Assembly (NCBI RefSeq): GCF_037042905.1
Contig: NC_087250.1
Coordinates: 15,068,001-15,132,000, forward strand
Origin: Lytechinus pictus
Taxonomy: Eukaryota
Reading direction: 5' to 3'
DNA: 64,000 bases
Part shown: positions 695 through 9,174 of the stretch, piece by piece
Layout: every line of letters begins with the position of its first letter
Numbering within the stretch: position 1 is the stretch's first letter
Translations under genes and position numbers: made by a program
Notes under the pieces: model-generated
What the model was told of the DNA's origin: nothing
The model's input: only the letters and a program-made list of their open reading frames with translations
Databases searched by the model: none

Positions 695-830
695 ATGCCA
701 TTGCCAGCTACCGATGATTATTCAGCCGTACAGGCTTACTTCACAGCCAAGGAATGGGCAGAAACTAGTGATTATGAAAAACTACGTCTCAAGAATATCA
801 AGGAAAACTATGAGATGATGATCGAAGTCG
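695..830 (+). CDS. PRDM9: PRDM9 coding exon 1, ancestral KRAB-A
   Basis: Acceptor CAG 681-683, ATG 695, [45 protein letters not shown], donor GTAAGT at 831 (phase 1). Not in the ORF track in this frame. Confidence 0.9.
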
Positions 831-6800: not shown

Positions 6801-9174
6801 TCTATGCTATAACTGATTATTTGCGTAGATGTACTAACAGATCTACATGTATACTTGCACTGCAATTCTAGTCTAATTAAATATTTCATGTAGGTCAGAG
6901 CCATTCTCCTTCATGAACTGGGTATTTACAATACTAGTGTATGCTTCATGTTCTTGAATGTATTAGTCATGATTTTACATAAACAAAAGATTCACGTATG
7001 TAAAATTGTTCAATCAGTATTTCACCATTGGGGAATTACAGTTCTTGATTTTTTCCTTCTCCCACTGCAAGTTGACTGAGTAAGGGGAGGTAGGATGCAA
7101 GATTTCCAACAGGGTCAAACTTAAGCTTCTCAAATATTTGAATTGAAAAATTTATTTAGTTTCTGAAGACTATATACAGGAATTCCATACACAGCATTTT
7201 GTTTGGAAATTAAACAAAATTATACTTTCATCTAAATGTACAGGTATGTGTTTATTGTCTGCTTCATCTTTTGTAAACCATAAACATTATTGATTATCGA
7301 AACTGAATAGATATCATTATTATTATTATCATCATCATCATCATCTCATGTTTATATAGTTCAGTTATGTGTTAAAATTTTTCACCAGTCACAACGTTTT
7401 GTATATTGCATTTATACCAAGATCTGCACAAAGGGTAAACCCCACCACTATGTTGACAGTAACAGTGAGCTGACAGGCAACTGGATGAGATACATCAACT
7501 GTGCACGCAATGAGGGTGAACAGAACCTTGTAGCATTTCAGTATCTTGGTGAGATCTACTATCGTACCTTCAAACCGATCTGTCCAGGAAGGGAGCTGCT
7601 GGTCTACTATGGGGAGCAGTATGCTAAGGATCTTGGTATCACATCACAGCTCAATAAATTCACCGTTGAAACAGGTAAATGATTGGAAAATCCCTTATCA
7701 TTCACATAATTAACTTCTTTTCAGAGTTTACATTTAATATGAAATTAATAAAAGTCTTTGAAATTGAGAAAAAAATACCTATTTTATTGAATAGTCATTG
7801 CCAAACCAAAGTTAAACAGAACAAAAAAAATCTGAAAAAATAAATAATGAGTAATCAAATAAATTTTTAAAATCAAAGCAAGAATTTCGAAAATGTCAAT
7901 GTAATAATTGTTCTTTCTAATGTAATGTTGGTATAAATTTACATTTTTCCACATTAAAGATAAATCTTACATTATCATCAACTATACAGTGTATTTAAAG
8001 AAAGCAAAATTGTGTATTTTTATAAAAAAGGGGTATATCTATTATTTCATCATCTGTAGCAATTTTAGATTCTGGACTCTATAGATGTGAGTACTGTGGA
8101 TCACTCTATGCTATCCCTTTGATCCTGGCAAGACATCTCAAGTACAAACATGGTCACCGTGGTATTGTCCCAACAGCAGATACACCGAAGGAAGATATTC
8201 TACAGTTCATCAAAGGAGAAATACAGAAACCAACTCAATCTATAAGTAGAGTCATGAGAATAAAGGCTGGTAGTGGTATAAGGAATAGTACCAGCAAACG
8301 TTTGTCAAATGGTATAACAAATGATTATATACATGCTTGTAGTTCTGAAATGAAATGCATTGATAAAGATAAAATACTTAAGCATACAACTTGTCCTGGT
8401 AAATTTGAAAACACCAGTAAGGATGATAATGCTAATGATGGTAATAAAGAAAATCATATATGTGAAGGGCTGTGCACAAGTGAACATCCAACAAGACATA
8501 AATACATTCATACAGGTGCAAAGCACCATGTATGCATTCAATGTGGTAAGGCATTTATTTTTGAATCTCATCTCACAATACATAAACGGATTCATACAGG
8601 TGAGAAGCCCTATGTATGTGATCAATGTGGTAAGGCATTTAATCGTGAACATGTTCTCACAACACATAAACGAATCCATACAGGTGAGAAGCCATATGTA
8701 TGTGATCAATGTGGTAAGGCATTTAATGAGGATCGTAATCTCACAAGACATAAACGAATCCATACAGGTGAGAAGCCCTACGTATGTGATCAATGTGGTA
8801 AGGCATTTACTAATGAGCATGATCTCACAAGACATATACGAATCCATACAGGTGAGAAGCCCTATGCATGTGATCAATGTGGTAAGGCATTTAATCAATC
8901 TAATGATCTCACAAAACATAAACGAATCCATACAGGTGAGAAGCCCTATGTATGTGATCAGTGTGGTAAGGCATTTAATGAGGATCGTAATCTCACAAGA
9001 CATAAACGAATCCATACAGGTGAGAAGCCCTATGTATGTGATCAATGTGGTAAGGCATTTAATCAAGGAAGTCATTTAAAAGTGCATAGATCAAAGTGTA
9101 AAGGTACAAACTCACAGTGCAATAAGAAACATGTGCATATACAAACAAACAACATCAAAACCAATGAAATATAA
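695..9174 (+). CDS. PRDM9: PRDM9/Meisetz-type histone-lysine methyltransferase, full-length domain architecture; join(695..830,2004..2126,3301..3380,4312..4627,5070..5183,6514..6779,7422..7674,8060..9174), ~800 aa
   Basis: Eight GT-AG exons with compatible phases sum to 2403 nt (801 codons) with no internal stop. Domain order is aKRAB ([40 protein letters not shown]), SSXRD ([23 protein letters not shown]), zinc knuckle (YCEDC..C..H), PR/SET ([32 protein letters not shown]), post-SET C2H2, terminal C2H2 array. Confidence 0.93.
2004..2126 (+). CDS. PRDM9: PRDM9 coding exon 2, KRAB C-terminal part
   Basis: Pyrimidine tract plus [44 protein letters not shown] resembles the PRDM9 GL..P.FM..DSDEEW.P pattern; GT donor at 2127. 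Confidence 0.88.
2401..3175. repeat. 32-bp intronic minisatellite (about 24 units) with higher-order structure
   Basis: Unit TACTCATGTGCTTTCTACTAAAGATATTAAGA with 34-bp variants; degenerate units upstream to ~2250. Confidence 0.95.
3301..3380 (+). CDS. PRDM9: PRDM9 coding exon 3, low-complexity linker
   Basis: TAG acceptor ends 3300; [33 protein letters not shown] donor at 3381; phases 1 and 0 fit the neighbouring exons. Confidence 0.78.
3775..4062. mobile_element. Short non-autonomous element with GCGGATCCAG/CTGAATCCGC ends and poly-G/poly-C tracts
   Basis: Imperfect terminal inverted repeats; internal ~75-bp duplication; same end type as the element at 30593-40925. Confidence 0.55.
4312..4627 (+). 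CDS. PRDM9: PRDM9 coding exon 4, acidic/disordered linker
   Basis: (CT)n tract plus TAG acceptor; in frame with ORF 4333..4728; phase-1 donor GTAAGA at 4628 matches exon 5. Confidence 0.75.
5070..5183 (+). CDS. PRDM9: PRDM9 coding exon 5, SSXRD motif
   Basis: CAG acceptor; [43 protein letters not shown] donor at 5184. Confidence 0.88.
5490..5862. mobile_element. MITE-like foldback element
   Basis: CAATTCATCTACTGCCAACTCGTCCACT is inverted against AGTAGATGAGTTGGCATTAGACCAATTG; internal TCGTCTA/TAGACC sub-repeats are mirrored. Confidence 0.6.
5975..6581 (+). repeat. Four tandem copies (164-177 bp spacing) of the PRDM9 intron end plus zinc-knuckle exon start
   Basis: TGTGARGAY.. knuckle starts at 6001, 6165, 6339 and 6516; only the last continues into PR/SET. 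Confidence 0.93.
6514..6779 (+). CDS. PRDM9: PRDM9 coding exon 6, zinc knuckle and N-terminal PR/SET
   Basis: [46 protein letters not shown]; donor GTATGT at 6780. Confidence 0.92.
7422..7674 (+). CDS. PRDM9: PRDM9 coding exon 7, C-terminal PR/SET
   Basis: [68 protein letters not shown]; donor GTAAAT at 7675. Confidence 0.92.
8060..9174 (+). CDS. PRDM9: PRDM9 last exon: post-SET zinc finger, linker and 7-finger C2H2 array
   Basis: [24 protein letters not shown], then repeated [21 protein letters not shown]. Two phase-compatible acceptors (exon start 8060 or 8069). AATAAA at 9231. Confidence 0.92.
8527..9099 (+). repeat. 84-bp coding minisatellite (C2H2 array)
   Basis: Units start at 8527, 8611, 8695, 8779, 8863, 8947 and 9031; units 3 and 6 differ at 1 of 84 nt. 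Confidence 0.95.

Follow-up and report, generated by a model that had tools for sequence, protein, structure and literature searches.

A complete PRDM9 gene of the sea urchin Lytechinus pictus and its two full-length paralogs on the same chromosome

PRDM9 places meiotic recombination hotspots in mammals, and whether such PRDM9-directed hotspots date back to ancestral animals or arose within vertebrates is a question that, outside vertebrates, has so far been addressed only through sequence features. A sea urchin locus raises it anew. The window analysed here, a 64,000-nucleotide stretch of the Lytechinus pictus genome (contig NC_087250.1, positions 15,068,001 to 15,132,000), carries at 695-9174 of its forward strand a gene that a preliminary description took for a complete PRDM9 and for a candidate hotspot-directing system. 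We propose that this gene is an intact full-length PRDM9, one of three paralogs on the same chromosome, and lean modestly towards hotspot placement as its likeliest function, by analogy with vertebrates. The gene was judged by the criteria for full-length, hotspot-type PRDM9 applied by Baker et al. 2017 and in a preprint on cnidarian PRDM9 paralogs (bioRxiv 10.64898/2026.09.07.749791).

The model of eight uninterrupted exons given in the preliminary description is borne out, with AG/GT at every junction and fitting phases. When the long form of exon 4 is used, the spliced translation equals the 800-aa database protein P0002, named "PRDM9-like [Lytechinus pictus]", letter for letter. The features of the gene, in window coordinates, are as follows.

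695-830, forward strand: exon 1, with the start codon and a KRAB-A-related box; donor GT, ends in phase 1
716-829, forward strand: KRAB-A-related box (residues 8-45), within exon 1
2004-2126, forward strand: exon 2, basic/acidic stretch following the KRAB-related box ([10 protein letters not shown]...[10 protein letters not shown]); AG/GT, phase 1
2373-3174, no strand assigned: noncoding 32-bp minisatellite in intron 2 (Tandem Repeats Finder: 24.8 copies, 90% matches)
3301-3380, forward strand: exon 3, short linker rich in lysine and proline; AG/GT, within the exact P0002 translation
4312-4627, forward strand: exon 4, acidic low-complexity linker; donor A/GTAAGA
5070-5183, forward strand: exon 5, with an SSXRD-like motif at 5108-5182 ([25 protein letters not shown]), then the first base of a zinc-knuckle codon
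5999-6513, forward strand: intronic tandem copies of the exon-6 acceptor and zinc-knuckle start (~174 bp, three extra copies)
6514-6779, forward strand: exon 6, zinc knuckle and N-terminal half of PR/SET
6723-6725, forward strand: Y276-equivalent codon, exon 6
7422-7674, forward strand: exon 7, C-terminal half of PR/SET
7560-7562, forward strand: Y341-equivalent codon, exon 7
7608-7610, forward strand: Y357-equivalent codon, exon 7
8060-9174, forward strand: exon 8, post-SET C2H2 finger (8080-8151), linker and tandem finger array; stop codon 9172-9174
8491-9065, forward strand: 84-bp tandem repeat coding for the finger array (Tandem Repeats Finder: period 84, 6.8 copies, 86% matches)
8512-9099, forward strand: finger array in exon 8, from the first finger to the end of a terminal C2HC-like finger (Pfam and regular-expression parse)

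The long exon 4 is preferred because it matches P0002 and because the 81 residues that it adds are conserved beyond this species, in proteins of L. variegatus and S. purpuratus; a short form (4312-4381, donor at 4381/4382, 719 aa) is in frame and was dropped in its favour. The intronic copies of the exon-6 start, which Tandem Repeats Finder reports at 6163-6580 (period 174, 2.4 copies, 94% matches) and which also appear as extra partial tblastn matches, all end in a stop according to the list of open reading frames, and splicing one of them in as a 106-nt exon would put the protein out of frame, as counted by hand on the sequence. An Rfam search of the whole window gave no match.

Three raw RNA runs of unspecified tissue (X4-X6, roughly one quarter of each run) and a set of contigs (X1) were mapped on positions 600-9300 at 97% likeness. 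The runs placed 191, 218 and 137 reads, with most depth on intronic repeats at ~3500-4090 and 5256-5837, approximately none on exons 1-3, 5 and 6, and very slight depth on exon 4, exon 7 and the finger-repeat exon 8. All seven listed joints fall inside these intronic repeats, and no exon junction was found in the X4-X6 reads, which are uninformative on gonad expression; the X1 contigs, which lie on exon 4 and the finger repeats, lack the length needed to assign them to the window copy. A germ-line Prdm9 transcript from sea urchin is cited in a passage of Oliver et al. 2009 (PMC2779102). The missing junction support in these runs and the decoy copies within the intron would be in line with an annotation artefact or a pseudogene, in which exons of decayed copies merely look joined. 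We regard this as highly improbable: all eight exons have an open frame, matching phases and AG/GT at their borders, the protein aligns in collinear order to vertebrate PRDM9 all the way from its KRAB-related box to the array, and two further loci as well as other sea urchins share the structure. That the gene is an intact, full-length sea urchin PRDM9 is near certain.

The zinc knuckle, PR/SET domain, post-SET finger and terminal array of the preliminary description are all present. Pfam PRDM2_PR matches the whole protein (E 1.7e-44) as well as exon 6 (E 1.4e-09) and exon 7 (E 1.8e-29) taken singly, and Pfam SET matches exon 7 (E 5.5e-08). Among solved structures, the best match to the PR/SET domain is human PRDM9 (4ijd, E 1e-48, 169 bits), with weaker matches to PRDM11 (7e-32), PRDM14 (4e-26), PRDM1 (1.3e-23) and PRDM12 (4e-22). 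In the exon-wise searches, exon 6 matches human PRDM9 (6nm4, E 1.3e-15; 4ijd, E 1.8e-15) with fgpydg opposite fgpyeg, and exon 7 matches PRDM9 (E 4e-23), aligning eiyyrt with qifyrt and llvyyg with llvwyg. Retention of the three tyrosines, also claimed initially, is confirmed by HMMER alignment: urchin Y327, Y392 and Y408 stand opposite the catalytic tyrosines of the human chains 4ijd and 6nm4 and of mouse 4c1q. The tyrosines of FGPYDG, EIYYRT and LLVYYG correspond to chain positions 82, 147 and 163 of 4ijd and 6nm4, which we take to be human Y276, Y341 and Y357 on the assumption that the construct starts at residue 195, a start that fits all three. A SET-domain tree, proposed earlier as a check, likewise groups the gene with PRDM9-named proteins, placing it inside a clade of such proteins from many phyla, which a 100/100* branch splits off PRDM1, the only outgroup family in the tree; 45 of 47 rows were used, with the THAP-type P0026 and P0056, which have no SET match, excluded.

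Less straightforward is the N-terminus, for which KRAB and SSXRD exons had been described. The Pfam models themselves are silent: neither KRAB (PF01352) nor SSXRD (PF09514) matches at E<=1, whether single exons or the whole protein are searched, and a solved-structure search with exons 1 and 5 gave no relative. Homology was instead judged pairwise against Pfam-positive segments of lizard PRDM9, which lends support to both exons. Exon 1 aligns to residues 166-206 of the Podarcis PRDM9-like protein P0063 (E 1e-12, 44% identity), the segment that Pfam KRAB matches at 169-207 with 23.8 bits. Exon 2 is collinear with residues 207-233 in the full-length BLASTP alignment. For exon 5 there is a single weak pairwise match to residues 328-352 (E 8e-4), in place within the collinear alignment and taken in by the Pfam SSXRD match at 323-350. 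The whole urchin protein is collinear with P0063, at 36% identity over 816 columns. Also on the lizard PRDM9 proteins the Pfam KRAB and SSXRD matches are weak (18-24 bits), and a gar PRDM9 protein gives 16 bits for KRAB, under the cut-off, and no match for SSXRD. By the pairwise match to a Pfam-KRAB-positive lizard segment, exon 1 encodes an N-terminal KRAB-related domain.

The gene identity and the vertebrate-style hallmarks of the initial reading stand, with the qualification that this is not a single PRDM9. Three full-length paralogs lie on one chromosome, namely the window copy and copies at 8.19 Mb and 20.17 Mb. The SSXRD-like exon 5 occurs at only these three places in the genome (three matches among four candidates), and its loci also bear the SET exon (94-100%) and the KRAB-related exon (98-100%). 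The 20.17-Mb paralog is annotated solely as a truncated 347-aa product; its exons 6-8 and splice sites are intact. Alongside them are an old family of SET-plus-finger paralogs and ~25 KRAB-related finger genes; contig C8 contains another 36 PRDM9-like SET exons, and there are another 25 KRAB-related exons, the majority beside finger arrays. In the SET tree, the window copy groups with the 20.17-Mb paralog and one L. variegatus protein (100/96*); the 8.19-Mb paralog stands separately and pairs with its own L. variegatus partner (97/86*). Since the starred Lytechinus clade (97/91*) excludes the S. purpuratus copies, these pairings indicate that the duplications are recent.

Vertebrates have one full-length copy with all hallmarks per genome, according to excerpts of the cnidarian preprint (bioRxiv 10.64898/2026.09.07.749791), and three copies therefore allow for redundancy or another function. 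Possibly only one of the paralogs is a working hotspot gene, with the window copy a young, redundant duplicate heading to loss or a new role. The recent duplications would fit this, as would the argument in the same excerpts that full-length duplicates are short-lived, and of the three arrays that of the window copy has the fewest fingers (6+1, compared to 11 and 10 canonical fingers). Against it, the window copy is free of stops, frameshifts and lost splice sites, keeps the three tyrosines, and has a contact diversity as high as that of the other copies (see below). We consider a redundant window copy unlikely.

The array itself comprises six canonical fingers and one terminal C2HC-like finger: Pfam gives seven C2H2 stretches in exon 8, and a regular-expression parse six canonical 28-residue units. 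Its variation is concentrated on the DNA-contact positions. Across the six units, contacts -1, 2, 3 and 6 hold a share of 0.51 of the amino-acid diversity, where an even spread would give 0.14, and nucleotide differences per site reach 0.450 in the four contact codons compared to 0.093 in the other 24, i.e. 4.9x. The two full-length paralogs have shares of 0.48 and 0.51, and controls from the same genome 0.26-0.28 (finger genes without SET) and 0.19 (the old SET-plus-finger paralog). Vertebrate PRDM9 yields 0.53-0.65 by the identical script, with 0.33-1.0 reported for full-length vertebrate PRDM9 in excerpts of the preprint (bioRxiv 10.64898/2026.09.07.749791). The nearest L. variegatus protein, a putative ortholog, is 94% identical over residues 1-430 and differs from the window array in finger number and contact residues. 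A second L. pictus database protein, P0005, has another array; the window exon 8 is its best genomic match, at just 78%. P0005 may represent an allele of the window gene.

Three features of the array count against a hotspot explanation. The 84-bp units are only ~86% alike, and the repeat units of mammalian PRDM9 arrays are more uniform than this; the finger framework is common to at least 225 other array matches in the genome (E<=1e-20); and finger genes that chase transposons likewise show contact-focused diversity. The preliminary description had suggested checking for ZCWPW1 and ZCWPW2, and one homologue is found: P0019, a zf-CW plus PWWP gene at 6.95-6.96 Mb of contig C14, with ZCWPW1 (8e-12) and ZCWPW2 (6e-10) as its best solved matches. 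Its PWWP domain is seen via the annotated protein and a protein search, and a Pfam PWWP search beside the zf-CW exon gave no match. A second ZCWPW-type gene was not found in the genome, where the other zf-CW match is MORC2-like, and this lack counts against the hotspot explanation as well.

Taken by analogy to full-length PRDM9 in mammals and other vertebrates, a role in hotspot placement is the most likely prediction, and we propose the following mechanism. In meiotic prophase, the array would bind specific DNA motifs, and the PR/SET domain would put H3K4me3 and H3K36me3 on adjacent nucleosomes, while the KRAB-related and SSXRD-like N-terminal modules may recruit partners. The ZCWPW-type reader encoded in the genome could then connect the sites so marked with the making and mending of double-strand breaks. 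As a consequence, hotspots would track the finger alleles and shift fast.

Alternatively, the gene may be a true member of the PRDM9 family that regulates chromatin in a sequence-specific way but does not choose hotspots, e.g. in transposon marking and restraint or in germ-line gene regulation, so that the fingers change in an arms race rather than through hotspot erosion. We hold this to be possible, if less probable. The birth-and-death character of the family, with its three full-length copies, 36 SET exons on C8 and 25 KRAB-related exons, is compatible with such a role, as is the lack of exon reads in the three RNA runs of unspecified tissue; that several full-length copies are unlike vertebrates follows from the excerpts cited above (bioRxiv 10.64898/2026.09.07.749791). 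On the other hand, all three copies keep the KRAB-related box, the SSXRD-like motif, the catalytic tyrosines and contact-focused array diversity, the relatives lacking the full domain set have lower contact diversity (0.19-0.28), and a ZCWPW-type reader gene has been retained, in better agreement with hotspot placement.

Compared to full-length vertebrate PRDM9 (human and mouse; the lizard and gar proteins P0063, P0054, P0060 and P0046), the urchin gene shares the domain order in a collinear alignment, a SET domain nearest to solved PRDM9, the three tyrosines and a similar contact diversity (0.51 versus 0.53-0.65). It differs in its overall identity (~36%), in being missed by Pfam KRAB and SSXRD, in having three full-length copies rather than one, in its less uniform repeats (~86%) and in that its function is predicted only. 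The S. purpuratus Meisetz/PRDM9 homologue (Birtle and Ponting 2006, as cited in passages of PMC4592553, PMC8835667 and PMC6745500) belongs to the same gene family: P0008, P0009 and P0001 are 90-91% identical to the window exon 6, and the S. purpuratus proteins group beside the Lytechinus copies in the SET tree. The S. purpuratus database models are partial, either 429 aa without fingers or without the N-terminus, whereas the window copy is complete. Sea urchin homologues were thus known, as had been noted at the outset, with PRDM9/Meisetz and an ancestral KRAB already in print (passages of PMC4592553, PMC8835667, PMC2794550 and PMC2779102), and together with the PRDM9-like annotation this makes the novelty of the gene smaller than first rated. 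A literature search on sea urchin PRDM9 found no description of three complete loci in a sea urchin genome.

A closer parallel in copy number is offered by cnidarians, for which the preprint excerpts (bioRxiv 10.64898/2026.09.07.749791) describe several full-length copies with all hallmarks per genome, recent lineage-specific duplications, older truncated SET-plus-finger paralogs with low contact diversity, and ZCWPW genes, all as in the urchin. According to the same excerpts, the multi-copy pattern had not been seen in other explored taxa. The urchin is a deuterostome, and one ZCWPW-type gene was found in it, compared to two in most cnidarians. With complete, hallmark-bearing copies and a ZCWPW-type reader, it represents a testable deuterostome outgroup. 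Moreover, its three full-length copies are relevant to a question raised for cnidarians in 2026, namely how a hotspot system that is sensitive to dosage and erodes itself can cope with duplication. If the copies do not place hotspots, the hallmarks that predict PRDM9 function across vertebrates would be insufficient. Sea urchin gametes and gonads are easily obtained, and knock-outs are feasible in L. pictus.

The KRAB-related finger genes point to a further parallel. Tetrapod KRAB zinc-finger proteins, repressors that recruit KAP1/TRIM28, also combine an N-terminal KRAB-type box with a fast-evolving C2H2 array and are encoded by clustered, duplicating genes. Unlike them, the urchin gene bears an SSXRD-like motif and PR/SET, and its box is of the ancestral PRDM9/SSX type, under the Pfam KRAB threshold; a canonical KRAB zinc-finger protein was rejected for the window gene on the missing Pfam KRAB match and the presence of PR/SET. 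As a tentative and somewhat doubtful extension, the paralogs may form a multi-gene PRDM9 system, in which three full-length and possibly multi-allelic copies jointly designate hotspots and in which the PRDM9 N-terminal module has independently seeded some two dozen clustered KRAB-related finger genes without SET, paralleling the birth of the tetrapod KRAB zinc-finger proteins.

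Confirmed on sequence grounds is the identity of the gene at 695-9174 (plus strand) as a predicted full-length PRDM9 carrying the vertebrate hallmarks. All eight exons are open, with AG acceptors, GT donors and compatible phases, and the translation spliced with exon 4 running to the donor at 4627/4628 is identical in every letter to the 800-residue database protein P0002, in agreement with the intact eight-exon model of the preliminary description. A shorter in-frame exon 4 (4312-4381), giving a 719-residue product, was set aside in favor of the long form because the 81 additional residues are conserved in the L. 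variegatus and S. purpuratus proteins. The window is located at 15.07 Mb on a 28.5-Mb contig of the 812-Mb assembly.

The novelty is limited, as the gene family is already known and P0002 is already annotated as PRDM9-like from Lytechinus pictus. PMC4592553, PMC8835667, PMC6745500 and PMC2794550, citing Birtle and Ponting 2006, describe a sea urchin homologue of PRDM9/Meisetz whose KRAB box is of ancestral type, bearing out the earlier statement that such homologues are known, and 18 Prdm genes are given for S. purpuratus by Vervoort et al. Our literature search on PRDM9 in sea urchins, echinoderms, Lytechinus and invertebrates found no paper on echinoderm paralogs or function. According to a 2026 preprint (bioRxiv 10.64898/2026.09.07.749791), which covers cnidarians only, multiple full-length paralogs per genome were unseen in other explored taxa.

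Pfam detects a PR-type SET domain in P0002 (PRDM2_PR, E 1.7e-44; SET, E 6.6e-12), along with seven C2H2 stretches. The top solved-structure matches to the SET domain are PRDM9 chains (4ijd, E 1e-48; 6nm4; 4c1q), followed by PRDM11 (7e-32) and, at lower scores, PRDM14, PRDM1 and PRDM12. The zinc knuckle likewise aligns to the solved PRDM9 chain, and three urchin motifs pair with it, fgpydg with fgpyeg, eiyyrt with qifyrt and llvyyg with llvwyg, their tyrosines falling at chain positions 82, 147 and 163. These we take to be Y276, Y341 and Y357, assuming a construct start at residue 195 that is consistent with all three; the reported retention of the three tyrosines holds.

The KRAB and SSXRD labels of the preliminary description stand in part. 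Neither Pfam model matched at E<=1, on individual exons or on the complete protein, a result that speaks against the labels; the same models are marginal on vertebrate PRDM9, with 18-24 bits in three or four lizard proteins and, in gar PRDM9, 16 bits for KRAB (under cut-off) and no SSXRD match. Pairwise homology to Pfam-positive segments of the Podarcis (lizard) PRDM9-like protein P0063 was found for both: exon 1 matches residues 166-206 (E 1e-12; Pfam KRAB at 169-207), and exon 5 matches residues 328-352 (E 8e-4), within the Pfam SSXRD match (323-350). Collinearity of the two whole proteins extends over the KRAB-related box, SET, the post-SET finger and the array. We count the window gene as having a predicted KRAB-related domain, while a putative SSXRD is weakly supported.

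Searches with single exons place this gene within a larger set. Exon 7 (SET) matched in 46 of 49 candidates, namely the window itself, two further places on its contig (8.19 Mb, minus; 20.17 Mb, plus; 94% identity each), 36 on contig C8 and seven elsewhere. The SSXRD-like exon (three of four candidates) occurs genome-wide at exactly the three full-length loci, which also account for three of the 28 matches (30 candidates) to the KRAB-related exon; the other 25, at 48-76% identity, comprise 18 on the window contig (C6), five on C21 and two on C17.

Loci related to the window gene
G000:C6:8181000-8196000, minus: full-length PRDM9 paralog, 10 canonical fingers, all three tyrosines; annotated as P0006, 921 residues
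G000:C6:20165500-20180499, plus: full-length PRDM9 paralog, 11 canonical fingers, all three tyrosines
C6 8.27-8.46, 13.8-14.45 and 19.2-19.5 Mb; C21 3.58-3.73 and 11.93-11.97 Mb; C17 0.88 and 2.06 Mb: further KRAB-related exon copies
C8, 36 places at 7.4-39.1 Mb (e.g. L004-L010): PRDM9-like SET exon family, 34-61% identity

Both paralogs have the complete exon set, the short exon 3 at 8.19 Mb being missed by tblastn with the window protein and recovered with P0006. At 20.17 Mb only a truncated 347-residue product is annotated; exons 6-8 and the splice sites belonging to them are nevertheless intact. Most of the 25 additional KRAB-related copies are without SET and SSXRD, and coordinate comparison places a same-strand finger array 7-25 kb downstream of most, as exemplified by P0098-P0100 (Pfam KRAB 18 bits, under cut-off; finger arrays, no SET). 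This family contrasts with the published view that KRAB zinc-finger-type genes are nearly restricted to tetrapods. Proteins P0026 and P0056 combine a THAP domain with a KRAB-related box. At L006, the divergent C8 locus inspected, the SET exon precedes a non-uniform finger exon and the Y341 equivalent is F; one member of the C8 family, P0051 (1069 residues), is conserved across three sea urchin species, with a low contact share (see below) of 0.19. As judged from sequence, the genome holds three predicted full-length PRDM9 paralogs together with expanded SET+finger and KRAB-related finger families. Equal-score match pairs with mirrored or shifted coordinates on C8 (27.6-31.8 versus 35.3-39.1 Mb; 22.75 versus 24.70 Mb) and C21 (3.58-3.73 versus 11.93-11.98 Mb) reflect large duplications of very recent origin or else haplotypes left uncollapsed in the assembly; the number of copies on these contigs may be overestimated.

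The exon-6 acceptor and zinc-knuckle start are present in three additional intronic tandem copies (5999-6513, period ~174 bp); each reaches a stop, and exonic use of one would cause a frameshift. A comparable extra copy occurs in the 20.17-Mb paralog, and the exon-6 sequence occurs two times in the S. purpuratus protein model P0001.

A maximum-likelihood tree was built from the SET region (45 of 47 rows, 189 columns, PRDM1 as sole outgroup family; all supports quoted are starred). In it, one group unites the window copy, the 20.17-Mb paralog and an L. variegatus protein (100/96), and another the 8.19-Mb paralog and a different L. variegatus protein (97/86). The Lytechinus clade (97/91) excludes the S. 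purpuratus copies, and the echinoid full-length clade has the conserved SET+finger paralog as its sister (95/82). This implies recent full-length duplications and an old truncated paralog, the same pattern as that described for cnidarians in the 2026 preprint.

The terminal array was identified by Tandem Repeats Finder as an 84-bp unit (8491-9065; 6.8 copies, 86% matches). Its units are less uniform than those of mammalian PRDM9 arrays. Nucleotide differences per site reach 0.450 in contact codons versus 0.093 in the remaining 24 codons, and near-identical units are found inside single paralogs and across paralogs. Contact share follows Baker et al. 2017, as relayed in the cnidarian preprint, where full-length vertebrate PRDM9 spans 0.33-1.0 and truncated forms span 0.158-0.524.

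Contact share (amino-acid diversity share at finger positions -1, 2, 3 and 6)
Window array, six canonical units: 0.51
Two full-length paralogs, same genome: 0.48 and 0.51
L. variegatus proteins: 0.58-0.61
Finger proteins with KRAB-related box, no SET, same genome: 0.26-0.28
Old SET+finger paralog (three sea urchin species, all alike): 0.18-0.19
Lizard and gar PRDM9, identical script: 0.53-0.65
Expectation under even diversity: 0.14

P0005, a 675-residue protein of the same species found in nr only, has an exon 1 identical to that of the window gene and a different array of nine canonical fingers; the best genomic match of that array is window exon 8, at merely 78%, and an unusual HIRIH finger is common to both. 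P0005 may be another allele of the window gene from a different assembly, in which case the array would differ greatly between alleles.

The presence of ZCWPW1/ZCWPW2, proposed earlier as a check, is borne out for one gene. Two of 14 candidates in a genome search for zf-CW matched: an 877-residue protein with zf-CW immediately followed by PWWP, with homologues in S. purpuratus and Diadema and ZCWPW1 (8e-12) and ZCWPW2 (6e-10) as top solved matches, and a MORC2-like protein. A genome protein search (eight of 11 candidates matching, six at a single locus and two being PWWP-only genes) found no second ZCWPW-type locus.

Hotspot positioning is the best-supported putative mechanism for the gene, and with three full-length copies the picture is less simple than the preliminary description assumed. 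A sea urchin germ-line transcript of Prdm9 is cited by Oliver et al. 2009 (PMC2779102). In three raw RNA runs of unstated tissue, which say nothing about gonad, the exons were almost uncovered and none of their junctions was spanned; appreciable read depth in the gene region was confined to intronic repeats.

Intronic repeats with read depth
2373-3174: 32-bp minisatellite, 24.8 copies, intron 2
~3500-4090 and ~5256-5837: repeats containing inverted parts and long runs of G or C, introns 3 and 5

Elsewhere in the window, a G+C-rich stretch (50-59% versus ~36% elsewhere) at 35518-38738 (minus) contains long retroelement ORFs of reverse-transcriptase-like and RNase-H-like sequence, and 28577-29458 (plus) is a separate LINE-type reverse-transcriptase fragment (28.6-29.5 kb). 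ORFs at 44532-44924 and 54714-55373 (plus) resemble exons of seven-helix membrane receptors and probably belong to a neighbouring gene.
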